From the UHGV virus genome UHGV-1329780: a DNA stretch of 40,311 nucleotides. The stretch is one strand, 5' to 3'. The position numbers and the translations under genes are program-made. Under the pieces are notes generated by a model that saw nothing but the letters and a program-made list of their open reading frames with translations, did not search any database and had not been told where the DNA came from. Positions 11,378 through 39,985 of the stretch are shown here, in pieces. Numbering within the stretch: position 1 is the first letter of the stretch; every line of letters begins with the position of its first letter. This DNA comes from a virus.

Positions 11378-11445
11378 ATCAATGACTCCGTACGCAATTA
11401 AATTATTACCAATTTAACCACATATGATTTATTTATCGTAGATAG

Positions 11446-11482
11446 TTGACATTTAACGCACTAATTATTACCTTTCAGGTAA
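11446..11482 (+). promoter_or_regulatory. Candidate promoter (-35 TTGACA) with TTACC-N5-GGTAA dyad over the -10 region, upstream of the tRNA cassette
   Basis: TTGACA at 11446-11451; dyad TTACCTTTCAGGTAA at 11468-11482; AT-rich context. Confidence 0.4.
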
Positions 11483-11804
11483 GCAAAGAGTTCATTCCGG
11501 TTATTAACCTGACTGGCTTGTCGTTAAATTGAACAGGTGGGGTGAGCTTTTATTTTGAGCAGTACGGTGTATGGCACATGCGCCGATAGCGGTCTGGATA
11601 CGTTTAAGGGGCACCCTCCCTTGCTCGGGCAAACGAACCAGGTAGCCGGAATGTGCAAGTCGAGCGGTTTTATTCCGCGCACGTGGATTCACCATCCCGG
11701 CGATTCGGTGTGACACCTCGGAAGAGACGAGGGTGCAACGATGAGAGCATTTATGGAGCCGCGACAAAGTGTGGTGCCTTAACAGGCTAAGTGCTCTCAG
11801 CGTT

Positions 11805-11881
11805 GTGGCATTAGCTCAGTTGGACAGAGCAACCGCCTTCTAAGCGGTTGGTCGCAGGTTCGAATCCTGCATGCCGCGCCA
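11805..11881 (+). tRNA. tRNA-Arg (anticodon TCT, reads AGA)
   Basis: Hand-folded cloverleaf: acceptor GTGGCAT/ATGCCGC (one G-U pair), D stem GCTC/GAGC with A20 in the D loop, anticodon stem ACCGC/GCGGT, loop CTTCTAA giving anticodon TCT, T stem GCAGG/CCTGC with TTCGAAT loop, discriminator G and encoded CCA. Confidence 0.9.
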
Positions 11882-12103
11882 GAATCACGCCTAAGGACCG
11901 TGATGCCAGAAGTTCCAGGGGCTTGGCGGTGATGGTTTCCCTTGAAGGACTATCACCGCCCTTTTTACAGCAGGACGCCATTGCGATGACTTCATGCTGT
12001 AAACCCGTACAGCCACGGAAGGCATAACTCATTGCTTCCAGTTCGCCCGGTTCGCCGGGCATTTTTTTGCTTGATGACCGCAAATTACCTTAAAGGTATA
12101 ATC

Positions 12104-12922
12104 ATGAAAAACTTCAAGGTAATTAGCATGTTTGAATCGTTCAAAGAGCTGTTTTTATCTACTGCCAATACTGCCGTGAATCGAGCCAAAAACCCTGTGC
12201 TTGGTGCTTTTGTTATGTCCTGGTGCGCCTTCAACTGGAAATCAATTCTTTATCTATTTTTTAGCAAATCAAACATAATAGATAAAATTTCATATATCTC
12301 AGATAACAGCACATGGAAAACTGTTATGTTTTATCCATGCTTATCTGTAATTGCTATCTGCTGCCTATTACCATGGGTAAACAATATCATTAACGTATGG
12401 CAAGCAAAGCCTCTTGATAATAATGACTCAATCGAAAATCACCTGAAGGCAAGAAAAATCCAGCGTGAAACCAGACTGCAGAGGTTATTAGCTAAAAAAG
12501 ATGTTACATACGACAAAGTTAAGACTGGCGCGGAAAAAGACATCCAAGAGATGAAAGAAGAGATTATTCGATCAAAGAATAGTATGGGGGAATTGACTGC
12601 CGAGTTGAAAGCTAAAGATGACGAATTGAGATCCGCCAGTGCTCAGTTAGCAGCTCTAAATCATTCATTAAAAGAGATATCGGAAACTCTGGGAAGAATG
12701 AATGAGGCATATAAGACCCTCCAAAATGATTTCGACGAATACAAACTCAAATACCCTGAAAAATCTCAAATAAAAAGCCTTGCACTTGGCAACGGCCAAA
12801 CAATTAGCAACTTTTTGGAGCAACACAACTTATCCGGATTAAAATCTGGTAAGCCAGACGTTTTTCATAACTTTGGTGTTCTATCTGGATTATCAGGTTT
12901 CGAGGATAAAAATAAAGACTAA
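12104..12922 (+). CDS. AT-rich moron protein: two predicted transmembrane helices plus C-terminal coiled coil (candidate superinfection exclusion / abortive infection protein)
   Basis: About 272 aa from ATG 12104 (alternative ATG 12128); hydrophobic segments PVLGAFVMSWCAFNW and VMFYPCLSVIAICCLLPWV followed by a Lys/Glu/Leu-rich heptad region; AT-rich with 5 of 8 Arg codons AGA/AGG and several ATA codons; opposite strand to the flanking late genes. Confidence 0.6.
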   Translation: MKNFKVISMFESFKELFLSTANTAVNRAKNPVLGAFVMSWCAFNWKSILYLFFSKSNIIDKISYISDNSTWKTVMFYPCLSVIAICCLLPWVNNIINVWQAKPLDNNDSIENHLKARKIQRETRLQRLLAKKDVTYDKVKTGAEKDIQEMKEEIIRSKNSMGELTAELKAKDDELRSASAQLAALNHSLKEISETLGRMNEAYKTLQNDFDEYKLKYPEKSQIKSLALGNGQTISNFLEQHNLSGLKSGKPDVFHNFGVLSGLSGFEDKNKD

Positions 12923-14394
12923 GCATATGGATCGTACTCGGTAAGCGCCTTGCCTTGCTGGTTCTGCTGCCCGGGAATTCGCAGACGCTTTGACACAGGG
13001 AAAGCAAACGTCAGCAGTAGCGCATCGCCTTTACCAGGCGAACGCCCAAGTCGTTCTTTGATATCTTCCTTCGGTTCGATAACGATTTTACCGTCCACGC
13101 GAACTTTGTACTCTGCCGCCGACAGATCGTCCGCTGTTTCCTGGTCATCCAGCATCCCGCCCAACCTCAGCCATGTCTTGCATGAGTTGAACATCTCCCC
13201 GCGCTTATTGAGCATCTGAGGGTCAGTTGACGCACCACCGAACGGAACAAGTTGCCATGTGCGCCCCCAGCCGTCACCGATTGACTTCAGACCGGTTCCG
13301 TAACCGAAGTCGATGAACACCGCGTCAGCCTGATACTGGTCTTCAAAGTCAGCGATACGCTTCGCCATAATCAGATCGTCAGTGGTCTTGTTGCCAGTCC
13401 ATAGCACCTTACTATGCAACCCCTGCCGCAGGTATATCACCGCGTCATCAACGCCTGAATATGCCGGGTCAACACCGATTATCACCGGAGCATGTGCCAC
13501 CTGCGCAGCGGTTACCACCCGTTTCATTGCCTCATCAGTAAGACCGGTAGGGATAAACTGCAATTCAGATGCATCAGGGAATATGCCGCGCACACGGATT
13601 TTAACGAAGTCGCTGTCTTCCCCGTAGTCATCAACCCATTTCTGCAACTGCTGTTTGTTAGTACCTTCCACCGTCCGGCTGTCAATCTGCGCAGTTTTCC
13701 AGCGGTGTTTGTATTTGCGGAAACATTCGCGAAAACGCCCGGTATTACGTGTAGGGTTTCCGAACGCCACCCAGATAATCTCAGTGTCTTCGTCCGTAAG
13801 CGCACCCTCAGCAACTTCCCACACCAGATCCGCAATGTTCGACGCTTCATCGAATACCACGATGATGCGTTTGCGCTCGTTGTGTAGTCCGGCGAATGCC
13901 TCAGTGTTGTGCTCAGACCAGGGGATTGCGTCAGCTCGCCACCGCTTGTCGTGCCCAGGGTCATTGCTGTACATCGCGGTAGCGGTACAGGTAAACCAGT
14001 CTTTCGTGATAGCAAGGTTCGACCACTTGATAATTTCCGGCCAGGTCTTCGTTCGTAGCTGGTTGTCGGTGTTGGCGGTCACCACGACCTTACAATCCTC
14101 GCAAGTGGACATGCCCCAGTTGATCAGCATTGAGATGAATGCGGATTTACCAATACCGTGACCAGAAGCGCGTGCCAGCATAAGCGGCTGATAGCGCGTC
14201 TCGGGATTCTGCAGGTGATCACGTATCTCTCGGAACGCATCGGCCTGCCACTGACGTGGGCCGGTAGCATGTGCCAGTTCAGTCCCCTCTTCCCCCCAAG
14301 GGAACGCATAGAGGGCATAACCAAGCGGATCGTGAGTGAACCCTGCAATATCCTCGATTAACTGCTCTTCAGGAGATAACACGGTATCTGTCAC
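12919..14394 (-). CDS. Terminase large subunit
   Basis: 491 aa; Walker A-like ARASGHGIGKS near the N-terminus, acidic nuclease-type C-terminal half; immediately downstream of the small subunit with overlapping stop/start. Confidence 0.8.
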   Translation of the reverse strand: MTDTVLSPEEQLIEDIAGFTHDPLGYALYAFPWGEEGTELAHATGPRQWQADAFREIRDHLQNPETRYQPLMLARASGHGIGKSAFISMLINWGMSTCEDCKVVVTANTDNQLRTKTWPEIIKWSNLAITKDWFTCTATAMYSNDPGHDKRWRADAIPWSEHNTEAFAGLHNERKRIIVVFDEASNIADLVWEVAEGALTDEDTEIIWVAFGNPTRNTGRFRECFRKYKHRWKTAQIDSRTVEGTNKQQLQKWVDDYGEDSDFVKIRVRGIFPDASELQFIPTGLTDEAMKRVVTAAQVAHAPVIIGVDPAYSGVDDAVIYLRQGLHSKVLWTGNKTTDDLIMAKRIADFEDQYQADAVFIDFGYGTGLKSIGDGWGRTWQLVPFGGASTDPQMLNKRGEMFNSCKTWLRLGGMLDDQETADDLSAAEYKVRVDGKIVIEPKEDIKERLGRSPGKGDALLLTFAFPVSKRLRIPGQQNQQGKALTEYDPYA

Positions 14395-14987
14395 TGATTA
14401 CCATCCTGACGTTCTTTGAGTCGCTTCCTGGCTGCTGCTATGCGATCAGCAATTGTCACATTCACATTAACATCCAGACGTTCTTTGAACGCGTTGACAT
14501 CAACATGCTTACCAATCAGCTCAAGGTTCTTCACCTTGTCAGGCCATTTAATTTTTTTGAGGATTGTCTCTATCGAATCCTCGTTCATGTTCATGATGGT
14601 CGATGACAGATCAAAGCCACTAAGCGTAGTGCGCCAGATTTTCGGCCACTCACGGATTGGTTTAAGGCTCCCATCGTCGTTGAGGATGTCGATCACGTCC
14701 ATCTGGTCGATCTCCACCAGACGCATGAGAACGTAATCAGCACTGACGCGCATTCGTTTGTTGCGCTCCTCCATCAGCTCGGCAATCCGTTTTTGAATGC
14801 GTTCATCGCGCATCATGACACTGGCTTTAACTGCCGCTGTATTTGGGGAGAATCCTGCGTTAATCGCTGCCTGAGTCTGGTTTTCAGGCGTTTTGATGTA
14901 TGACTGGCAATAAGCCTCCTGCATTGCTGTTAGTGGCTTAAATTGCGTTGATTTGCGTTTATAGGTTTTAGGTTCAGCAGGCATCAT
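14391..14987 (-). CDS. Terminase small subunit
   Basis: Probable start at tandem ATG 14987/14984 (MMPAEPKTYKRK...) rather than the upstream ORF-track start; helical, basic N-terminal DNA-binding-like region; overlaps the large subunit start. Confidence 0.65.
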   Translation of the reverse strand: MMPAEPKTYKRKSTQFKPLTAMQEAYCQSYIKTPENQTQAAINAGFSPNTAAVKASVMMRDERIQKRIAELMEERNKRMRVSADYVLMRLVEIDQMDVIDILNDDGSLKPIREWPKIWRTTLSGFDLSSTIMNMNEDSIETILKKIKWPDKVKNLELIGKHVDVNAFKERLDVNVNVTIADRIAAARKRLKERQDGNQ

Positions 14988-14994
14988 AACCACC

Positions 14995-15026
14995 GTGGTA
15001 ATAGTTACCGTTGTGGTAATAGTACC
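14995..15026 (-). repeat. Tandem direct repeat GTGGTAATAGT(T)ACC x2 just upstream of the terminase small subunit start
   Basis: Copies at 14995-15009 and 15013-15026, between an intrinsic terminator and the terS start; candidate late-promoter or regulator binding site. Confidence 0.4.
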
Positions 15027-15029
15027 ATG

Positions 15030-15056
15030 CAAAATAAAGCCGCCATAGTTGGCGGC
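15030..15056 (-). terminator. Intrinsic terminator (minus strand) between the nin-like block and the terminase genes
   Basis: Hairpin GCCGCCA-TAGT-TGGCGGC at 15039-15056, followed on the minus strand by TTTATTTTG. Confidence 0.5.
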
Positions 15057-15105
15057 AGTATTCAAACCCCATCAAATTCATCATGCATAATCTACTCGTG
15101 ACATG

Positions 15106-15447
15106 TCACACTATTAATTTCGTTTCATGCCAGCCTTTAGTCACCCAGCATTGCGAGTCACCATTACACGGGCATGAATTAACTGGAACTCTCTCGCCGC
15201 ACTTACCGCAACATTTTCTGCTGATCGATTTTATACGCCCGCGCACGCGTGCATCATCCTGGCGGATCAGTAACGCTATATACTCACCAAATTCGTAAGG
15301 CGCACGCCCGGGGCGACGCGTGGCACAGTTACGCTCCAGCATTTCAATTTCCTGAGCATCAAGCACAATCTCCAGTTTACGCACACCAGATGCAGCTTGT
15401 CTGGCTCTCTGAGCGGCTTTGCGCTCTGCTGCTGATTTAGCCATCAA
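15106..15447 (-). CDS. Small basic protein with C-terminal Cys-rich (zinc-ribbon-like) motif; candidate late-gene regulator
   Basis: 113 aa; N-terminal basic/helical region (KAAQRARQAASGVRKLEI) and C-terminal CCGKCG...CPCNGDSQC cluster; last gene before the terminator and terminase operon. Confidence 0.4.
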   Translation of the reverse strand: MMAKSAAERKAAQRARQAASGVRKLEIVLDAQEIEMLERNCATRRPGRAPYEFGEYIALLIRQDDARVRGRIKSISRKCCGKCGERVPVNSCPCNGDSQCWVTKGWHETKLIV

Positions 15448-15718
15448 TATTTACCTTTATCGCGAACACCTTTACCGGTTTATCTCCGAAGTGCGGATGT
15501 GTGATTGTCTTGATTTCATATCCGTCATACGGAACATCTATTCTGCGGCTGGAATCGTCGCTCCTCGGATATCCCTTTGTGATAATCAGGCGGTCATACT
15601 CCCGGAACATAATTCGCTTATTCCAGTAGTCATTACACAGGCGATACTCTTCCGTTTTCTCTCCAGACTTCATCTGGTCGAAATATTCACCGTTAACTGC
15701 CAGTTGAAGGTTAGCCAC
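15437..15718 (-). CDS. ASCH-like (PUA-fold) domain protein
   Basis: GTG start at 15718 preceded by AGGAGG at spacing 6; overlaps the upstream stop; N-terminal pattern NGEYFDQMKSGEKTEEYR typical of ASCH domains. Confidence 0.45.
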   Translation of the reverse strand: MANLQLAVNGEYFDQMKSGEKTEEYRLCNDYWNKRIMFREYDRLIITKGYPRSDDSSRRIDVPYDGYEIKTITHPHFGDKPVKVFAIKVNIDG

Positions 15719-16565
15719 GGTTAACCTCCTGCGGCGGTTCTGGTAGCCGCATCCAGTGTGACGGTTTCCACGACGCACCAGGAATTATCCACCCATCATT
15801 AGCGTCAGGATGACCCGGGATGTAAGTCGCCCATTTCATTCGCCAGTCACCTTTCCTGTCAAACTCCACGGCAACAAGAACGGCTGTTTTGGTATCCGGC
15901 ATTCGCTCACTACAGCTTATCCAACCATCCGGAGTTACCGGATAGTTGCGCATTGCGACCTTTAATGCCTCATAGAAGCACTCTTTCAAATTGTTGAACT
16001 GACACCCATTTAGAGGGCCGTGTTCAGTCAGCATGTTGTGTAATTTCCATGCCGCGTCGTTTACTTCTCTGGATGACAGGGGAGGCAACTTGTAAGTTTG
16101 GCTTACAGGTTCGGCACCATGAAGCATGGCAGCACGGCAGGCGTTCCAGCCAGCTGTTCGCCCAAGCGAGTAAACTTCAGATGGCTCAAGATAATCAATG
16201 TCATGCCCGTCCTCATCGTCGTTCTCAGGTAATGCAGCAGGTACTACTGGCACTGGAGGGGCGGCATAAACAGGAATAACGTCCGATTGATCTTTATTGC
16301 TTTCATCCGTTAAAGCCCAGAATAATTTCCCGGCCGGATGTTTGAAAATATAAGCAACAGGCTCTGCTTCCAGTGATGCCAGCACGATACGCGCCAGCTC
16401 ACGCACAACTTCCGGCGGCGCGTAACGGTCATTCAGGTCATCCCACAGACGTAGCATGTTATCGCTACCAGGGTGAACATCCTCGTTAGTTCCGGCAAGC
16501 GCACTAATAACCTCATCGGCTGCCTCAATAATTTTCAGCGCTTGTTCTCTGGTAATAGTGGTCAT
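15711..16565 (-). CDS. DUF551-type C-terminal domain protein with Ea22-like N-terminal region
   Basis: 284 aa; C-terminal DGWISCSERMPDTKTAVLVAV...HWMRLPEPP matches the DUF551 pattern; N-terminal region shares LEAEPV and AALPxxVVP motifs with the 158-aa neighbour at 17686-18162. Confidence 0.55.
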   Translation of the reverse strand: MTTITREQALKIIEAADEVISALAGTNEDVHPGSDNMLRLWDDLNDRYAPPEVVRELARIVLASLEAEPVAYIFKHPAGKLFWALTDESNKDQSDVIPVYAAPPVPVVPAALPENDDEDGHDIDYLEPSEVYSLGRTAGWNACRAAMLHGAEPVSQTYKLPPLSSREVNDAAWKLHNMLTEHGPLNGCQFNNLKECFYEALKVAMRNYPVTPDGWISCSERMPDTKTAVLVAVEFDRKGDWRMKWATYIPGHPDANDGWIIPGASWKPSHWMRLPEPPQEVNRG

Positions 16566-17191: not shown

Positions 17192-17689
17192 TCACTCTCC
17201 TTTGATGCGAATGCCAGTGGTACTCATTCTCCTGATTTCCCAGAGCACACGAGGAACACCACCGTTTCCGACCGGATCGCGTTTACTCCGCAAGGCGACG
17301 CTTGATTCCGCCCAGCTTTTTCTTGGAGGAAGCTCTTTCACACGAACAAAACCAGCTGCGCGAAGAGATGCTCCTGATTCATCTGCCTGGGTGTACGTAA
17401 TACAACGTTGATAACCCATAGCTTTTGCTGCCCGCCAGACAGCACCATAAAGCGCGCTGTTAGCGTTGCGTTCTCCTGTGGTACATGTGCGATTTACTTC
17501 AAGCGTTAATCCATCGTCCAAATGTCGTGCAACAGGTCGACCAGCTGTCGCCACACCTATCAATTCTCCGGCATCATTTATCAGACCAATGCTGAATTTA
17601 TGCCCAACAGGTGGTTTATTGTGTCGGTGATGTCTGGATATAAACGCCTTCGCAACACGAAGAGTAACCGGTGAAATTTGCACTCTCAC
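17192..17689 (-). CDS. Hypothetical protein (nin-like region)
   Basis: About 165 aa from GTG 17689 directly after the upstream TGA with an AAAGGAG SD; no family recognised by eye. Confidence 0.45.
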   Translation of the reverse strand: MRVQISPVTLRVAKAFISRHHRHNKPPVGHKFSIGLINDAGELIGVATAGRPVARHLDDGLTLEVNRTCTTGERNANSALYGAVWRAAKAMGYQRCITYTQADESGASLRAAGFVRVKELPPRKSWAESSVALRSKRDPVGNGGVPRVLWEIRRMSTTGIRIKGE

Positions 17690-18162
17690 TCTCCTTTGAT
17701 GCCAATGTTTACAGCCTGGCAAGCTTCTTCGAGTACCCAGTCAACAGCGTCTTTCCACGCACCAGTCCCAACTGACGGATTCTCATTTTTTACCTGCTCA
17801 TAAAAACGCACCGCTTTAACCAGTCCTTCAGGCACTACAGGCGCTGGCAAGGCAGCGTGACAGTAGAGTGGCATAGTTTTGTACAGGGGGGCGCCAGGAC
17901 TTCCGTCAACCTGATTCCATTCTTCAACCCAGGCATCAACAATCGCTTTGCTGGTTGATACATGTTCTTCTGAATCTACATTTTGTCCTGATATACAGAA
18001 CATAACTGGCTCTGCTTCCAGTGATGCGTCCAATACATCAAGCAATGCCAGTACAACCTCCGGCGTAGCCGCAGCATGAAAAGCCTGTAGGTTCTGCCAC
18101 GTCGTCTTCTCCTTCGCGACCTCTGCCGCCTCTCGCAGTGCCTGGTAATTAATTTCGCTCAC
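17686..18162 (-). CDS. Hypothetical protein sharing an N-terminal region with the DUF551 protein
   Basis: 158 aa; shares LEAEPV and ALPAPVVPE motifs with the N-terminus of the 15711-16565 product. Confidence 0.45.
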   Translation of the reverse strand: MSEINYQALREAAEVAKEKTTWQNLQAFHAAATPEVVLALLDVLDASLEAEPVMFCISGQNVDSEEHVSTSKAIVDAWVEEWNQVDGSPGAPLYKTMPLYCHAALPAPVVPEGLVKAVRFYEQVKNENPSVGTGAWKDAVDWVLEEACQAVNIGIKGE

Positions 18163-19170: not shown

Positions 19171-19173
19171 GAT

Positions 19174-19250
19174 TTACCTCTGAGGTAATTAAAAACCACA
19201 TAAGACATGAAATCAATAGAGTTTATAATATTTTGTTACCTAACAGGTAA
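19174..19250 (-). promoter_or_regulatory. Promoter/operator region with two TTACC-N5-GGTAA dyads upstream of the nin-like operon
   Basis: Dyads at 19174-19188 (TTACCTCTGAGGTAA) and 19236-19250 (TTACCTAACAGGTAA) in an AT-rich intergenic gap. Confidence 0.45.
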
Positions 19251-19287
19251 TTATCGAGGCGTAAAAAAATGCGCTATCGCGCTGGTA

Positions 19288-21207: not shown

Positions 21208-21438
21208 TCATGAGTAGAAGAAGTATGCCAGTTCTGCTTTTGAGCGCAGCCATTGTCTTGTTTTACAGGCTTTAAAAAGCCCATTCATCAATACTTTACC
21301 TGGCATTTTGCGCTTGCCTGTTAAGTGAGTCTGGATATAGTGACTCGTCGTTCCGGCTTCCTGTGCGAAGGCTTCACGCTCATCCGGAGTAAGTGCAAGC
21401 CAGTGCTTTTTGAAATCGAAATGTCCGTTATCGCTCAT
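21208..21438 (-). CDS. Cro/CII-like small HTH regulator
   Basis: 76 aa; helix-turn-helix-like segment; first gene leftward of the divergent operator region. Confidence 0.5.
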   Translation of the reverse strand: MSDNGHFDFKKHWLALTPDEREAFAQEAGTTSHYIQTHLTGKRKMPGKVLMNGLFKACKTRQWLRSKAELAYFFYS

Positions 21439-21474
21439 AGCTATTGCCTGATATTTATTTCAGATAATAAATAT

Positions 21475-21592: not shown

Positions 21593-22177
21593 ATGAAAAG
21601 TATCCAGGACGTCCGCAGGCAAAATCTCAACGACTTGATCGACCGTGAATTCAATGGTGTTCAGACGCGGATGGCAGAAAAACTTGGAACTCAGGCAAAT
21701 CTGGTAAACCGCTGGGCTCTTGGCAAGAAGGTTATCGGCGACCAGGTTGCACGAAAAATTGAAGCTGCCGCCAATAAACCCCGTAACTGGCTTGATATTG
21801 ATCGTTCGCTTTCTCAGGAGGGTTTTCAGCCTGTCGGCCCGAGCGATATAGGTCAGCTGGCGGCTCACAACCTGGAACGCTGGATGAGCGAAAGCCGCGA
21901 CCTTTCAACACAGGGAAAACTTCACCGCGCATCCGGCGTCGCCCAGGTGACAATCAGCCGCCTGTTAAACAATGAGGTCAGCGTTTCCATTTCCACCCTG
22001 GAGAATGTTGCATCCGCATTCGGGCGTCACGGATATGAACTACTGATTCACCCGCACGACCCTGCGACTATCAACTATGACCGCTCACGCTACGCATTGT
22101 TACCCGAAACCGAGAAAGCAAAGATCGAAAGTTACATTGAATTTGTCATCAACCAGAACGAAAAAAGCAAACAATAA
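21593..22177 (+). CDS. CI-like prophage repressor with two HTH domains and no S24 peptidase domain
   Basis: 194 aa; HTH-like segments (MAEKLGTQANLVNRWALGK and ASGVAQVTISRLLNNEVSVSISTLENVASAFG); no Ser/Lys autocleavage module evident; divergent from the cro-like gene and followed by a strong terminator. Confidence 0.6.
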   Translation: MKSIQDVRRQNLNDLIDREFNGVQTRMAEKLGTQANLVNRWALGKKVIGDQVARKIEAAANKPRNWLDIDRSLSQEGFQPVGPSDIGQLAAHNLERWMSESRDLSTQGKLHRASGVAQVTISRLLNNEVSVSISTLENVASAFGRHGYELLIHPHDPATINYDRSRYALLPETEKAKIESYIEFVINQNEKSKQ

Positions 22178-22221: not shown

Positions 22222-22234
22222 ATTGCCAGATAGA

Positions 22235-22311
22235 TTACCTTACGGGTAATTTTTTTAACTCATATCTATTGACACCAAACCAAATAAGCATAATTATTAC
22301 CCCAACGGTAA
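22235..22311 (+). promoter_or_regulatory. pL-like promoter with two flanking TTACC-N5-GGTAA operators
   Basis: -35 TTGACA at 22269-22274, -10-like AATTAT 17 nt downstream; dyads at 22235-22249 (TTACCTTACGGGTAA) and 22297-22311 (TTACCCCAACGGTAA). Confidence 0.55.
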
Positions 22312-22330
22312 CAGACCGAGGTAACAAGTT

Positions 22331-25120: not shown

Positions 25121-25420
25121 GTGAGAAAGTTAAGCCGACTTGAAAAATATCACATGAATAAGGTTTCAATGCGCAGTCCGTCAAAGATTGTCGCCGTTAC
25201 TCCTGCGGCGATAGAGATCGAAAAACGCGCGATTGAAAGAGAGAAAAAAGGGCAATTCCGCATTGCCGCTCACCTTTGGCTTCAGTGTATGGATGTTGCT
25301 TCTGGTGATGTTGAACGTGCAAGGATCGCGGTTCGCAGGGACCAATGTATCACAAAAGGTAACGGCCTTCGCCGTGGCGACTATAGCGGCATAGGATGTT
25401 GTGGGGTGGTTTATGACTAA
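25121..25420 (+). CDS. Hypothetical small protein (possibly PerC-like regulator)
   Basis: 99 aa, GTG start with GAGGG RBS; the PerC-like assignment is a weak guess by eye only. Confidence 0.35.
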   Translation: MRKLSRLEKYHMNKVSMRSPSKIVAVTPAAIEIEKRAIEREKKGQFRIAAHLWLQCMDVASGDVERARIAVRRDQCITKGNGLRRGDYSGIGCCGVVYD

Positions 25421-27508: not shown

Positions 27509-27825
27509 AATTCACCCGTATAGAAACCATTTTCATGACGGTATGAGAGTATACCTTTAAGGTAATACCGTCACCTGTACCGACGAAAAATATGGTGTAG
27601 AGTGAATAGAAATGAATACATAAAAACAAAAACCCTCTGTAAAAACAGAGGGTTGAGTTAGTATCTGAATAGGAATGATTTGCTATGAGTTAGCTGTTAA
27701 TCATTCCCACTCAATTATTTACGGCATGCATAACCAATTGGCTGGTAACAACTTTCTGTAACCTGATTTTCACCGTACCGTTTTATATACCGTCACCGGA
27801 AATCAGTACCATGAAAAATGCCATG
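27509..27825. other. Candidate attP region between integrase and the lysis cassette
   Basis: Noncoding; ATACCGTCACC at 27565-27575 and 27787-27797, with GATACCGTCACG twice more inside the int 5' coding region (27239-27250, 27329-27340); inverted repeat GGAATGATT/AATCATTCC at 27672-27707; variant dyad ATACCTTTAAGGTAA at 27551-27565. Core crossover site not identifiable. Confidence 0.4.
27620..27652 (-). terminator. Intrinsic terminator ending the late/lysis operon
   Basis: Hairpin CCCTCTG-TAAAAA-CAGAGGG at 27633-27652 followed on the minus strand by a T-rich run (complement of AAAAACAAAAA at 27621-27632). Confidence 0.6.
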
Positions 27826-33049: not shown

Positions 33050-33153
33050 GTTAAATCTCCAGATAGTCGCAGCACCCGTTGCGCCGCATATCTGGTTATT
33101 CTATTACCTGGAAAACCACATATGGATAGAAAGGCTGTAAATACGAATAGATA

Positions 33154-33205: not shown

Positions 33206-33225
33206 TACTGTATAAATATACAGTT
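33206..33225 (+). promoter_or_regulatory. LexA (SOS) box
   Basis: TACTGTATAAATATACAGTT: CTGT-N8-ACAG core at 33208-33223, 18/20 identical to the consensus TACTGTATATATATACAGTA; 20 bp upstream of ATG 33245. Confidence 0.8.
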
Positions 33226-33244
33226 ATTGCATGGAGAAGATAAG

Positions 33245-33502
33245 ATGCAGCAGTATCACTATCCACTGGAAGACGGATTTACCGAAAGGATTCACACGCC
33301 GGGAGGCGTCAGGTCACTGGTGGAGGGATCGCACTTGATGAAATTACTCCGGGATCTCGATAAGGATGGATTTAATGTCGATGGCCCACTTGCCGAACTG
33401 ACTGCACTGATTAACTACGTCACCAGCTCACAGATGTCTATGCGGGATCTGCAAACACATCTCGACTATTGTGCCGAACAATTACGAAAACAAACCAGAT
33501 AA
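33245..33502 (+). CDS. Small LexA-controlled protein homologous to the antirepressor C-terminal domain (candidate SOS-inducible antirepressor)
   Basis: 85 aa; GGAGAAG RBS; about 50 percent identical by eye over about 75 aa to the C-terminal region of the 33818-34528 product (IHTPGGV...LMKLL...DG.NVDGPLAELTAL..RDLQTH). Confidence 0.6.
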   Translation: MQQYHYPLEDGFTERIHTPGGVRSLVEGSHLMKLLRDLDKDGFNVDGPLAELTALINYVTSSQMSMRDLQTHLDYCAEQLRKQTR

Positions 33503-33533
33503 GGTTTGCAATTACCAAGTGGAGTGCTTATAT

Positions 33534-33548
33534 TTACCTTTGCGGTAA
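33534..33548 (+). promoter_or_regulatory. TTACC-N5-GGTAA dyad flanked by a 7-bp inverted repeat, upstream of a candidate promoter
   Basis: TTACCTTTGCGGTAA flanked by GGAGTGC/GCACTCC; followed by TTTACA (-35-like) and TAGTAAT (-10-like). Confidence 0.45.
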
Positions 33549-33639
33549 ATTTACATCGCACTCCTCTTGTGCCATAGTAATCGGGCACTGGCAAAATCCA
33601 GTGCCGGGATTGGCGTCCCGGGTTACTAAGTGGCGCATA

Positions 33640-33661
33640 CCACGCCAGACGTGGTTTTTTT
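33640..33661 (+). terminator. Intrinsic terminator/attenuator between the two antirepressor-like genes
   Basis: CCACG-CCAGA-CGTGG hairpin followed by T7; preceded by two further hairpins. Confidence 0.6.
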
Positions 33662-33817
33662 ATGCGTTAAGCACAGCTATATCCGAATTATGGTGGGCTG
33701 GGCAGGGGTCCGAAAGGACGCCGGTACCACTTAGGCCGGTACGCCAACCTTGTCCAGTTCACCACCAGTAATTGGCGTTGCGGTGGTGATTAAAATCACT
33801 AAGTGGAGATAACCACC

Positions 33818-34528
33818 ATGGCTAATGCTCAAACTTCCATCTTCAAATTTGAATCTGTTAACCCTATCCGTTCCATCATTATCGATGGCCAACCATGGTT
33901 TGTAGCCCAAGACGTTTGTAGTGCGCTGCGTATCCAAAACGTCACCCAAGCACTTGAAAAACTGGATGATGATGAAAGGTCTATGTTCAACATAGGGCAT
34001 GAACATCGTGCAATTTTTGACAGCCGAGTAAAAGAGATCAACATCATCTCCGAGTCAGGCCTCTACACACTGATCCTCCGCTGCCGCGACGCAGTGACAC
34101 CAGGCACTATCCCCTACCGCTTTCGTAAATGGGTTACGGGTGAGGTTCTTCCTCAGATCCGCCGCACCGGAAGCTACATTAAAAACTCGCTCCCGCAGGA
34201 AGAACGCATAAAGATGGTTGCCGACCAGGTAGCCAACGCCACGGCGTCAGCAGTAATGCAGGCGATGAAGATAGAGAACAAAACCTACAGCGCCCCACTG
34301 AAGCCCGGCTACCGCAGCCTGATTCATTCGCCGTCTGGTGTTCTCGGCCTGACGGAGAACTCACTGCTGATGAATCTGCTGAACCAGTTACAGGACGACG
34401 GGCACGACGTATCGGGCGCGGCGGCGGAGCTGACCACCATGTTCTGCTACATCGTCGGTGTGAGCAAATGCCTGCGTGATATCCAGACCCACGCGGAATA
34501 CATCAACGACAAGGCAGGGTTCTTCTGA
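33818..34528 (+). CDS. Bro-N domain antirepressor-like protein
   Basis: About 236 aa from ATG 33818 (GGAG RBS); N-terminal FKFESVNPIRSIIIDGQPWFVAQDVCSAL...ESGLYTLIL is a typical Bro-N pattern; C-terminal domain paralogous to the small protein at 33245-33502. Confidence 0.7.
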   Translation: MANAQTSIFKFESVNPIRSIIIDGQPWFVAQDVCSALRIQNVTQALEKLDDDERSMFNIGHEHRAIFDSRVKEINIISESGLYTLILRCRDAVTPGTIPYRFRKWVTGEVLPQIRRTGSYIKNSLPQEERIKMVADQVANATASAVMQAMKIENKTYSAPLKPGYRSLIHSPSGVLGLTENSLLMNLLNQLQDDGHDVSGAAAELTTMFCYIVGVSKCLRDIQTHAEYINDKAGFF

Positions 34529-34571
34529 CGGGCGGTGGCACAGGGATGTGCCTTTAAATAATTCTGTACAG

Positions 34572-34615
34572 ATTGCAGACTGTGGGTGAATAGCGTACTA
34601 TTACCTTAAAGGTAA
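34572..34615 (+). promoter_or_regulatory. Candidate promoter (TTGCAG-N17-TACTAT) with TTACC-N5-GGTAA dyad at the transcript start
   Basis: Dyad TTACCTTAAAGGTAA at 34601-34615 immediately upstream of an AGGAGG RBS and ATG 34628. Confidence 0.45.
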
Positions 34616-34627
34616 AGGAGGCGCGAT

Positions 34628-35348: not shown

Positions 35349-35510
35349 ATGAAAAAAGCATTTGCTGCACTGTTCGTTTTGTTGTCTCTGGTAGCTTCAA
35401 CTCAGGCCTTTGCCGGTCGTTGTCAGCACGACAGCGACACTGCTGCTGACGGCTCCCGCTGCGGTGGGCGTTCTGCGGACTCCCGTCCGGGCGGCGGTGG
35501 CATTCGTTAA
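35349..35510 (+). CDS. Candidate small secreted peptide
   Basis: 53 aa; N-terminal signal-peptide-like MKKAFAALFVLLSLVASTQAFA then a Gly/Arg/Asp-rich segment with two Cys; weak RBS, so the call is tentative. Confidence 0.3.
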   Translation: MKKAFAALFVLLSLVASTQAFAGRCQHDSDTAADGSRCGGRSADSRPGGGGIR

Positions 35511-35552
35511 AAACAAGGCCGCGAAAGCGGCCTGTGACATGTCACGCTCACG

Positions 35553-38182: not shown

Positions 38183-39985
38183 TTAACCTCTCAAGAAACA
38201 CGCCACAGCGACATCAAACAGGCTGGAATCCTGTATTGCCTGCTCACTTTCCCTGTTCGCTTCATCCAGTACTTCACGCGCGCTGCGCGATTGTGGATTA
38301 CCATCATCATCCAGCACGGTGATTATCATGTCCGGATATTCAAGCAGCGAGTCTTCAGCTATACGCAGATCAATATCTCCTGCCGGATCTGCCATCATTT
38401 TTTGTTCTGTCTGTTGCAATATCTTACCGGGATCAAAAGGAGCTACTTCGTCTGGCGTCCTGACCTCTGCTGTTTTATAGAATGAAACAGCCTGAGCATT
38501 AAGTTCACTTTCTGCCTGCTGTCTCCGAGCCAGTTCTGCTCGAGCTTCAAAAAACTGACCGCCAGGCTCATGCGGTGCCAACGCGTTACGGGAAAATTCC
38601 AGGCGTTCTTGTGCCTGCCGGATTCGTTGGTCAATATCCCGAAGTCTGGCCTGTTTATCTGATCGAGCACGAGACAAAGCTTTACCGCTACCGGCTGGAT
38701 CTTCTGCAAGAATTTGTGCGCGCTGTTCAGTGAGATTTTCAATAATTCGTTGGCTATTAGCGATTTCAGACTGGTAAACCTGTCTATCGCCACGCGGCAA
38801 AAGCTGCGCGGCCTGTTCTTCAAGCAACCGATTTTCTATAGCGCGCGCCGTTACTCCATCATCTACAGATGACAGAGCCTCATTAACTGCCTGAGACAGC
38901 AGACTCTTGCGTCCAGGAATTTCACTGAAAGATGCAGACTCAACAATGCTGGCAACGTCTACAGGTCTCCCCTGGCTAACATCAGACATGGCTTTTCGCA
39001 GAGCCTGAATGTGCGAATTACGCGAAAGCACGTTGATCGGCACGCCGGGAGCAATATCAATTTCAGCATGATGAGCGGCATTCGCCGCCAGTGCAGCATC
39101 GATATCAACTGGTGAAAAATTTGGTGCGCTTGTAGACTCGCCGCGAGAGTTAATAAATCTGCCGACACCACCAAACGCCACCCCAAGAACAGCATCAATA
39201 GCAATTGCCTGTCGATCCAACACATCATACTGGTTAGCCATTTCGCTATAGCCACCATCACGAAGCGTTTTTGCAGTAAGCCCACGCTGTGCCATACCGA
39301 ACGCAATATTTGTACCTGCGGCATAGGCAATATCTGGCGTTGCACGTACTGCTGTTGCTGCGGCGCGTCGCACTGAACTTTCACCCGTCCGCGCAAGCTG
39401 AGCCGCCACACCTTCCGCCAGCGCACCACCAGCACGTAACCCGAGGCTCATAGGGATCAGTGTTCCGGCACCAGCAGTAATACCCTGCACTAATCCCGCT
39501 TCCTGCGCCGTCCTGAAATCAACACCCTGTGCTGTAAGCCGTTCAAACTCAGAAAAACCCTGTAGAGAAGTTACCGCCGCAGCACCTCCGACCGGACCAC
39601 CGAGCGTTGTACCGACAACAGCCTGCCCGCCCATATCGAACAACCCATAAAGGACCTGCCCGGCGGTTCCGGTTGTCGCGGCATCAGGCGTCAGCCGCTT
39701 AACCTGCTGCTCTGCTAGTTTTCTCTGCTCAGCAATGTATGAAACTGAAGTGTCATTGATCGAGGTGTTTTCGTTAACAAACTGAGCAATCGGGGATACG
39801 ATTTTATCCATCCCTGCCCATAGCAACTGATCTGGCTTTGCCACCAGCCCGGAGTACAAACCAGACAATGCCGCTCCTACAGCATTGTCGAAAAAACCAA
39901 CATCGCTGTTAAAGCCAGCTGGATTTGATGCTGCTTCGTCAAGCTGCTGATTCTGGTTTACTGGATTAAGGCCAAAGTAACTCAT
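38183..39985 (-). CDS. Internal virion (ejection/core) protein
   Basis: 600 aa; Ala/Gly-rich; ATGA overlap with the upstream gene. Confidence 0.5.
   Translation of the reverse strand: MSYFGLNPVNQNQQLDEAASNPAGFNSDVGFFDNAVGAALSGLYSGLVAKPDQLLWAGMDKIVSPIAQFVNENTSINDTSVSYIAEQRKLAEQQVKRLTPDAATTGTAGQVLYGLFDMGGQAVVGTTLGGPVGGAAAVTSLQGFSEFERLTAQGVDFRTAQEAGLVQGITAGAGTLIPMSLGLRAGGALAEGVAAQLARTGESSVRRAAATAVRATPDIAYAAGTNIAFGMAQRGLTAKTLRDGGYSEMANQYDVLDRQAIAIDAVLGVAFGGVGRFINSRGESTSAPNFSPVDIDAALAANAAHHAEIDIAPGVPINVLSRNSHIQALRKAMSDVSQGRPVDVASIVESASFSEIPGRKSLLSQAVNEALSSVDDGVTARAIENRLLEEQAAQLLPRGDRQVYQSEIANSQRIIENLTEQRAQILAEDPAGSGKALSRARSDKQARLRDIDQRIRQAQERLEFSRNALAPHEPGGQFFEARAELARRQQAESELNAQAVSFYKTAEVRTPDEVAPFDPGKILQQTEQKMMADPAGDIDLRIAEDSLLEYPDMIITVLDDDGNPQSRSAREVLDEANRESEQAIQDSSLFDVAVACFLRG

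Follow-up and report, generated by a model that had tools for sequence, protein, structure and literature searches.

A terminator, a pair of repressor-type operators, and a palindrome linked to a Cys-rich protein family at the early/late junction of an ε15/φV10-like phage

Introduction

What separates the early operon of a temperate phage from the terminase and other late genes that follow it on the same strand? The question is raised by positions 14,988 to 15,447 of UHGV-1329780, a virus genome of 40,311 nucleotides (the whole stretch that we analyzed, referred to here as the window). In this interval, a minus-strand hairpin with a U-tract and two tandem repeats lie between the gene for a small Cys-rich protein and terS, the gene for the small terminase subunit. 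An initial annotation, made from the letters of the DNA, described the arrangement as a candidate late-control switch and proposed that late transcription may need the Cys-rich protein as an antiterminator or activator, with the repeats serving as its site or as part of a packaging (pac) site. Here, we describe the repeats as copies of an operator motif that is dispersed through the genome, and we link the Cys-rich protein to another element, a 12-bp palindrome at its own stop codon. On balance, we believe that the junction is an early/late boundary locked by an intrinsic terminator together with a pair of operators for the prophage repressor, Rep.

The source of the window is a temperate podophage of the ε15/φV10 type (Uetakevirus). 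Over window positions 14300-15800, φV10-like phages of Escherichia coli (PAS61, O157 typing phages 9 and 10, TL-2011b, and φV10) have 96-98% nucleotide identity with it, and ε15-like Salmonella phages have 83-86% identity.

Anatomy of the junction

At this junction, the last early ("nin-like") gene meets the terminase/late operon, as the initial annotation had it, and its assumption that the early-right operon and then the late genes lie on one strand holds as well. Read along the minus strand, the order is Cys-rich gene, GTGACATGTCAC palindrome, terminator, two 17-bp palindromes, and terS. The palindrome is separated from the terminator by 41 nt, and the terminator tail is separated from the first operator by 10 nt. 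The features are as follows.

15106..15444, minus strand: gene for a 112-amino-acid Cys-rich protein (ε15 gp49 / N15 gp46 family, phrog_536), last gene of the early-right operon
15098..15109, no strand assigned: perfect 12-bp palindrome GTGACATGTCAC, which contains the TGA stop codon of the Cys-rich gene; candidate site of that protein
15062..15088, minus strand: mini-open reading frame (mini-ORF), MHDEFDGV and a stop codon, between the palindrome and the terminator, as read from the sequence
15031..15056, minus strand: intrinsic terminator with a 7-bp G+C-rich stem, a 4-nt loop, and a TTTATTTT tail
15004..15020, no strand assigned: distal operator, ATTACCACAACGGTAAC in the minus-strand reading, a Rep-type 17-bp palindrome whose ε15 orthologue is annotated as a protein_bind feature, "repressor" (12-27)
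14986..15002, no strand assigned: proximal operator, ATTACCACGGTGGTTAT in the minus-strand reading, which covers the terS Shine-Dalgarno sequence (GGTGG) and abuts or overlaps the ATG
14391..14984, minus strand: terS, small terminase subunit, first late gene (Pfam Terminase_2, 1e-29; phrog_51, 7.7e-58)
14394-12919, minus strand: terL

Past terL there is an accessory island on the opposite strand, followed by the portal gene and other structural genes; the lysis genes are at the far end of the strand. For terS, ATG codons are found at 14987 (alternative) and at 14984, and we chose as the start the ATG used in the annotations of ε15 and TL-2011b. A longer terS ORF beginning at TTG 15065 was dropped, since it would span the terminator and since the ε15 and TL-2011b annotations use ATG.

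The hairpin with a U-tract between the last nin-like gene and terS proved to be real. Its stem-loop reads GCCGCCA-ACTA-TGGCGGC at 15056-15039 of the minus strand, with G-C pairs at six of the seven stem positions, and is followed by TTTATTTT at 15038-15031. In a scan of 12-20 kb it ranks first among terminator-like sites. The predicted folding free energy (ΔG) is -14.5 kcal/mol (z = -4.1), and none of 200 shuffled sequences folded equally well. The orthologous hairpin in the ε15 RefSeq record carries a rho-independent terminator annotation (39646-39672, at the end of the record, after gp49). Among the relatives whose junctions we compared, the terminator is kept, with one A-U to G·U change, in loci L013 and L015-L020, and it is missing from the junctions of BUCT554, L012, L014, and L022. 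Its sequence predicts that it ends the early-right operon.

The stop codon of the mini-ORF lies 5 nt ahead of the terminator stem. The mini-ORF is kept as M[HRT]DEFD[GV][VF] plus a stop codon in L015, L016, and L018 and is absent from ε15-type junctions; in other relatives, a full gene beginning MLDEFE stands at its position. It probably remains from a downstream gene that has been deleted. It is also possible that it serves as a leader peptide, the translation of which could mask the terminator. An Rfam scan of 14800-15600 gave no family matches.

The repeats are copies of a genome-wide operator motif

The tandem repeats over the terS start region also exist as described: two exact 11-nt copies of GTGGTAATAGT, at 14995-15005 and 15013-15023, lie 18 bp apart and reach the terS start. 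In another register, they form two adjacent 17-bp palindromes, ATTACC-N5-GGTAAT, each with one mismatch to this consensus. We took the register from the ε15 site TTACC-AAAAC-GGTAAT. The core, TTACC-N5-GGTAA, has 10 exact copies in the window, compared to 0.06 expected from shuffles; when up to three mismatches to ATTACC-N5-GGTAAT are allowed, there are 37 copies, compared to 13.2 expected. Among perfect inverted repeats found de novo, the same core is by far the most frequent, both in the window and in ε15 and eight related prophages. Every operator copy is intergenic, and the motif is present in both orientations. Copies away from terS are listed below (no strand assigned).

11467..11483: upstream of the portal operon
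starting at 19173 and 19235: between the replication genes and the resolvase gene
starting at 21474, 21522, 22234, and 22296: flanking rep (21593-22177)
starting at 33153: upstream of the tailspike gene
starting at 33533 and 34600: around the antirepressor genes

The operators at 19173 and 34600, like the proximal one at terS, overlap the ribosome-binding sites of first genes. Adjacent pairs with a spacing of 17-18 bp are found at the immunity region and at terS. Pairs with a spacing of 62 bp flank promoter-like sequences beside rep (22234-22312) and at 19173-19251: on the plus strand at 22.27 kb, TTGACA and then a -10 element lie between operators 22234 and 22296, and on the minus strand at 19.2 kb, TTGATT-17-TTTAAT lies between the paired operators. 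ε15 has the same 62-bp pairs (32554/32616 and 35906/35968). This arrangement points to possible looping by tetrameric Rep and to a second promoter, under Rep control, within the early-right operon.

In ε15, sites are found at the equivalent places and all are annotated as repressor sites, including one upstream of terS. The pair at terS, with a spacing of 18-20 bp, is kept in ε15, PAT1, BUCT554, L012-L014, L017, L018, and L020; the L015 junction is nearly identical to that of the window; and prophages of Citrobacter, Pseudocitrobacter, Erwinia, Superficieibacter, and Pseudescherichia are among the relatives that keep the pair. Across these relatives, the arms are constant and the N5 spacers vary, and the Shine-Dalgarno sequence of terS is in every case within the proximal site. 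In L016, L019, and Klebsiella phage ST512-KPC3phi13.3, the distal site alone falls within a cutoff of two or fewer mismatches, and in L022 the operators are arranged differently. Even in a Pseudomonas prophage, the ribosome-binding site of terS is covered by such a sequence, GTTACCAAGGAGGTAAT.

Since the motif occurs genome-wide, the repeats are operators of a regulon and neither a terS-specific element nor a pac site. We conclude that the "tandem repeats" are the general operator of this phage, read out of register. Because the ε15 record already holds both the terminator and the repressor site, the finding as first noted is largely explained, and the junction in the window is a further instance of the arrangement annotated there.

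We also noted that ATGTGGTT has exactly three copies on the minus strand (11416-11423, 19194-19201, and 33114-33121), each of them 32-45 nt downstream of an intergenic operator. In ε15, TGTGGTT follows three operators, in one instance where an annotated RNase III site begins. We set ATGTGGTT aside: the total of three copies, compared to 1.6 expected, is not above chance, and the copies have no consistent place in a promoter.

Rep is the presumed operator binder

Two genes of the immunity region are relevant to the identity of the protein that binds the operators.

21593..22177, plus strand: prophage repressor Rep, presumed operator binder, homologous to SPC32H Rep
21208-21438: Cro-like protein

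Rep of the window is homologous to SPC32H Rep (PDB 5D50) over its full length (E = 3.5e-42), and both proteins have the same NLVNRW segment in the N-terminal domain. SPC32H Rep is a tetramer and binds palindromic sites (PMC9638917). The paired palindromic operators of the window fit binding by a tetramer, as in SPC32H. Most likely, Rep binds the operators, with one tetramer per two adjacent sites, as at the immunity region.

In SPC32H, the tetrameric repressor is inactivated by a LexA-controlled antirepressor. The window resembles the SPC32H Rep/Ant system (PDB 5D50 and 5D4Z) in having a homologous Rep together with antirepressor genes, at 33227-34528. Unlike that of SPC32H, its ant module precedes the tailspike gene and contains isrK and C4-type RNAs. 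The module spans 33208-34616 (plus strand), with the structural block on one side and the tailspike gene on the other, and includes a LexA-box-like sequence, CTGT-N8-ACAG (33208-33223), a 91-amino-acid ORF (33227-33502), an Rfam isrK match (33585-33661), a C4 antisense RNA (33686-33769), and Ant (33803-34528; phrog_130). Rep-type operators are present at 33153, 33533, and 34600.

Several relatives have an additional gene at the junction itself, between the gp49-like gene and terS, with a strong promoter that is overlapped by a LexA box. Two unrelated versions of this gene exist, a first type in BUCT554, L012, and L014 and a second type in L013, L019, and the Klebsiella phage. The promoter of the first type reads TTGACT-17-TATACT, a sequence also noted in the Klebsiella phage, with a GTGAC-N2-GTCAC palindrome 6 nt upstream of the -35, and the first type has no terminator before terS; the other version of the inserted gene is followed by a terminator. 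The LexA-controlled gene is evidently an antirepressor, as in SPC32H. Since the first type lacks the terminator, the operator pair is the sole barrier between the inserted promoter and the late genes in these relatives, which is in keeping with a lock.

A locked early/late boundary as the favored reading

We consider it probable, if far from certain, that the junction is an early/late boundary locked by the terminator and by a Rep operator pair over the terS ribosome-binding site. The terminator and the Rep-bound operators would lock the terminase and late genes against transcription arriving from upstream, either from early promoters or, in relatives, from the LexA-controlled antirepressor promoter at the junction. 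Rep on the operator pair would act as a roadblock or would occlude entry into terS, and the terminator, where present, would add a second barrier. Late genes would then be expressed by read-through, once the antirepressor has removed Rep or before Rep has been made. The Cys-rich protein would bind GTGACATGTCAC rather than the repeats, and it may modulate passage through the adjacent terminator. A scan for sigma-70-like promoters between the terminator and terS matched none, and comparison of the relatives' junctions by eye showed no conserved -35 downstream of the terminator. We therefore rejected a constitutive promoter at this position. Given that no promoter was found there, terS transcripts probably come from upstream.

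Some of the evidence weighs against a boundary locked in this way. Operators usually mark promoters, and it is possible that terS has an unrecognized, activator-dependent promoter. The operator palindromes also predict an RNA hairpin that would sequester the terS ribosome-binding site. The terminator is not essential to the design, since BUCT554, L012, L014, and L022 do without it. All 10 genomes or loci examined share one unvarying operator motif, although their Rep proteins are only 41-73% identical; hence, covariation of Rep and motif offers no means of telling Rep apart from another conserved binder, for instance the Cro-like protein. Finally, the assignment of the operators to Rep is drawn from their positions and from a database annotation that may itself be predictive.

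The predicted hairpin is the basis of an alternative in which control would be exerted at the RNA level: the folded repeat region would sequester the terS Shine-Dalgarno sequence and AUG, and translation would need unfolding or coupling. The first repeat is predicted to pair with GGUGGUUAUG, the 136-nt junction has a z of -3.1, and operators overlap the ribosome-binding sites of two other first genes (19173 and 34600). However, any tandem palindrome pair folds in this way, and the prediction has no independent weight; the motif occurs in both orientations and at promoters beside rep, for which DNA binding is a simpler explanation; and the Rfam scan of 14800-15600 matched no family. We regard control of this kind as quite improbable. 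We give still less credence to the two roles that the initial annotation proposed for the repeats. As the site through which the Cys-rich protein activates or antiterminates late transcription, the repeats have in their favor that the gene is close by and that its family is annotated as a transcriptional regulator. However, the motif is found at eight or more other places, with a concentration around the repressor gene, and the ε15 record marks the orthologous copy as a repressor site; moreover, in scans for the GTGAC-N2-GTCAC palindrome, the distant homologues in N15 and in Yersinia, Vibrio, and Pantoea phages shared it at or near their genes. The proposal is very improbable in our estimation. 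The suggestion that the repeats are part of a pac site recognized by terS is harder still to credit. The start of terS is a frequent location of pac, and the database records of several relatives begin nearby, but the starts of these records differ (window positions 15105, ~15066, 15059, and 15030) and look like annotators' choices. In addition, the same motif is found at nine other places, and 10 exact copies of the core across the genome are incompatible with a unique packaging start. We found no statements on packaging for these phages in the literature searched.

The Cys-rich protein and its family

The ORF of the Cys-rich protein was called as 113 amino acids (15447-15106), and the initial annotation described a protein of this length with a zinc-ribbon-like Cys cluster. 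The gene is real, its four-Cys pattern is conserved, and its family is annotated as a regulator; the length needs correction, since homologues have 112 amino acids and start at the ATG at 15444. The protein matches phrog_536, "transcriptional regulator" (E = 8.5e-55). Residues R8, R13, Y50, E54, C79, C82, and C99 are among those that are invariant, with one further Cys around positions 92-94, and the Cys spacing in the family is C-x2-C-x9-12-C-x4-6-C. No sequence match was found in Pfam, NCBIfam, or PDB. An AlphaFold model built with 59 sequences had a confidence score (predicted local distance difference test, pLDDT) of 86.8. The initial annotation had called for a structural search, and when this was run with the model, the only fold matches were weak and of the ribbon-helix-helix (RHH)-like type, in the N-terminal half; MatP was among these weak matches, and there was no Q-family match. 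Arc, Mnt, CopG, ParD, TraM, and PcfF were taken as the RHH regulators for comparison. The model thus points, weakly, to an RHH-like N-terminal half and a four-Cys C terminus.

The statement that no Q- or N-like antiterminator is recognizable was borne out by scans of the early genes with Pfam, PHROGs, and NCBIfam. Neither the 112-amino-acid protein nor any other early gene tested had a match in Pfam, PHROG, NCBIfam, or PDB that would place it in the Q family. A late activator of the Ogr/Delta type was also rejected: Pfam Ogr_Delta (C-x2-C-x22-C-x4-C) did not match at E ≤ 0.1 in any of 59 family members.

Homologues are encoded by Uetakeviruses, N15 and φKO2 (gp46/gp45), P2-like Yersinia phages, Pantoea phage AH07, and phages of Vibrio and Aeromonas. 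Their genes are usually the last or nearly the last in an early operon.

A palindrome travels with the protein family

GTGACATGTCAC occurs exactly twice in the window, compared to 0.05 copies expected. One copy contains the stop codon of the Cys-rich gene. The other is part of a composite element.

35509..35545, minus strand: second GTGACATGTCAC copy (35545-35534), 1 nt, and then a terminator, GGCCGC-TTTC-GCGGCC-TTGTTTTT, where the block of structural genes ends

The palindrome-terminator composite is also found in ε15 after gp18, and at the gene that converges on terL in ε15, BUCT554, and L012-L018. The more general form, GTGAC-N2-GTCAC, is present at the stop codon or 3′ end of the homologues in ε15, PAT1, the Klebsiella phage, N15, the Yersinia P2-like phages, Pantoea phage AH07, and the Pseudomonas prophage. 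Among 80 prophage loci fetched by their terS, the palindrome was present in all 11 with a homologue of the Cys-rich protein and in 2 of the 69 without one (Fisher p = 7e-12); the 11 homologue-bearing loci contain 20 copies, compared to 0.19 expected. It was likewise present in 78 of 80 IMG/VR loci of the family. Conversely, 46 of 120 pieces of viral DNA containing GTGACATGTCACGG also encode a family member, and in 21 of the pieces containing GTGACATGTCACGG the palindrome is located just after terL. From this association, GTGACATGTCAC is the best candidate for the Cys-rich protein's own site. A full-text literature search for GTGACATGTCAC found no paper, and its association with the family seems not to have been described before.

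Two unrelated phages with homologues have several copies. Vibrio phage K308 has three perfect GTGAC-N2-GTCAC sites (21342, 33227, and 35942), one of which is 31 nt upstream of terS. N15 also has three perfect sites (28550, 33237, and 39269): one is at the gene 46 stop codon and immediately precedes the gene 47 ribosome-binding site, one comes after the end of the gene 37-33 operon, and one is inside repA.

We tried the palindrome as a general -35 element (GTGACA) and rejected this reading, since the match is weak at 15098 and no -10 follows the copy at 35534. After the Cys-rich gene, GTGACA-18-CATGAT is a weak promoter match (9 of 12 positions); ε15 reads GTGACA-17-TAAATT.

What might the protein do at the palindrome? 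It could bind GTGACATGTCAC, as DNA, as nascent RNA, or as the non-template strand, and let polymerase pass the terminators that the palindrome precedes, as an analogue of Q. The gene is the last early gene and directly precedes the late operon, which is the position of Q in λ; no Q- or N-like protein was found among the early genes; the palindrome travels with the protein family; in Uetakeviruses, copies lie 1-45 nt 5′ of terminators at two positions on the late strand (gp49 and gp18); and one of the K308 copies is just upstream of terS. GTGACA together with a weak -10 at 17-18 nt could also make a pR′-like promoter with a short terminated leader, and antitermination is compatible with the operators being Rep sites. 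On the other hand, relatives that lack the terminator still carry the gene; N15 has both a homologue and gp40, which is annotated as a late transcription activator; the homologue in P2-like Yersinia phages is found in a different context; many lineages have the next gene, rather than a terminator, after the palindrome; and one of the copies in Uetakeviruses stands ahead of the terminator of an accessory gene convergent with terL, a place at which read-through would do harm. Antitermination at the palindrome is, in our view, doubtful. Nevertheless, an antiterminator role stays in play, given where the gene lies, that no Q- or N-like protein was recognized, and that the palindrome is paired with a terminator.

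The copy at the gene converging on terL is better suited to a blocking role, and the palindrome, bound by the Cys-rich protein, might instead be a module boundary: an insulator or roadblock that aids termination, or a recombination junction for cassette exchange, and not a late activator. Copies are located exactly where the conserved core meets variable accessory DNA (after gp49, after the terL terminator, and after gp18), the DNA on the far side of the palindrome varies from relative to relative, and an extended match, GTGACATGTCACGGCGT, is common to different positions. A block between the early operon and terS would, however, oppose late expression unless there is an unseen promoter, and no recombinase is linked to the site; the proposal draws on positions. 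A role as insulator, roadblock, or module boundary fits some of the facts better than does simple antitermination; overall, we think it unlikely.

As a more general proposal, the phrog_536 proteins would be an uncharacterized class of phage DNA-binding proteins that read GTGAC-N2-GTCAC and that act, in Uetakeviruses, as late antiterminators or as insulators coupled to terminators. We offer this tentatively, as something that may be true but that we would not presume. If it is, the class spans podophages, siphophages, and P2-like myophages of enterobacteria, Vibrio, Aeromonas, and Pseudomonas, its site is typically built into the stop codon of the protein's own gene, and the protein gates polymerase from the early operon into terS and the late genes.

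Comparison with known systems

The closest known system is that of ε15 (NC_004775.2), in which the stop codon of gp49, annotated there as a "transcriptional regulator," is likewise at GTGACATGTCAC and is followed by a terminator that differs from that of the window by one A-U to G·U change, then by a pair of ATTACC-N5-GGTAAT sites with a spacing of 18 bp, and then by terS. It differs in that the segment between palindrome and terminator is 22 nt rather than the 41 nt, including the mini-ORF, of the window; in its N5 spacers; in that only the distal site is annotated; and in its repressor, which is 43% identical to that of the window.

In mycobacteriophage L5 (gp71 "stoperators") and in P1 (C1 operators), one immunity repressor acts at dispersed sites, including the heads of late operons, and repressor sites of this type downstream of promoters can block elongation. 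The presumed repressor sites of the window are similarly scattered through the genome, including the head of the late operon. Unlike those of L5 and P1, they are symmetric 17-bp palindromes, number ~10-14 rather than ~30, and in several cases overlap promoters or ribosome-binding sites. The repeats belong to a genome-wide repressor regulon in which Rep appears to guard each transcription unit, including the terminase genes. Direct guarding by Rep would be closer to P1 or L5 than to λ.

The junction shares with the Q/pR′/tR′ region of λ a regulator encoded by the last early gene, a short non-coding segment with a terminator, and late genes on the same strand. It is unlike λ in that the regulator has no Q-family homology, the interval between gene and terminator has a promoter match of only 9 of 12, terS rather than the lysis genes comes directly next, and repressor operators follow the terminator.

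The matS site of E. coli is GTGACRNYGTCAC (PMC6907758). The half-sites of GTGACATGTCAC equal those of matS, with a spacer of 2 nt instead of 3. A search for the 13-mer matS with up to one mismatch found no copy in the window, where the palindrome is a 12-bp site. Homology of the Cys-rich protein to MatP was rejected (hhalign probability, 0.1%; BLASTP E = 13); unlike MatP, the protein lacks the four-helix bundle and the coiled coil, and it has a Cys4 C terminus instead.

A late switch in Uetakeviruses matters for φV10-type phages, which are used in O157 typing and in reporter assays, and for ε15, a model phage of cryo-electron microscopy. A role of the Cys-rich protein in late control is plausible, as a hypothesis. 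The association of the family with the palindrome is strong and simply testable, and it offers a handle both on late control and on a widespread protein family of temperate phages.

Other features of the window

The accessory island between terL and the portal operon occupies 11805-12922 on the opposite strand. It contains a tRNA-Arg (TCT) gene at 11805-11881 and, overlapping the end of terL, an ORF for 296 amino acids at 12032-12922 (phrog_4780, unknown function). This ORF has a promoter-like sequence, ATGACC-17-TATAAT (12074-12102), whose spacer holds the operator-like ATTACCTTAAAGGTATA, and an operator-like sequence similar to ATTACCTTAAAGGTATA is found upstream of int, at 27550. In the nin-like region, the minus-strand ORF at 17192-17722 has a Mom-like DNA modification match (phrog_1384, 3.6e-42; Pfam Mom, below the cutoff). 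In the early-left operon, positions 25121-25420 of the plus strand encode a small PerC/ANR-like "transcriptional activator" (phrog_868; Pfam PerC, 6e-07), which is a candidate regulator.

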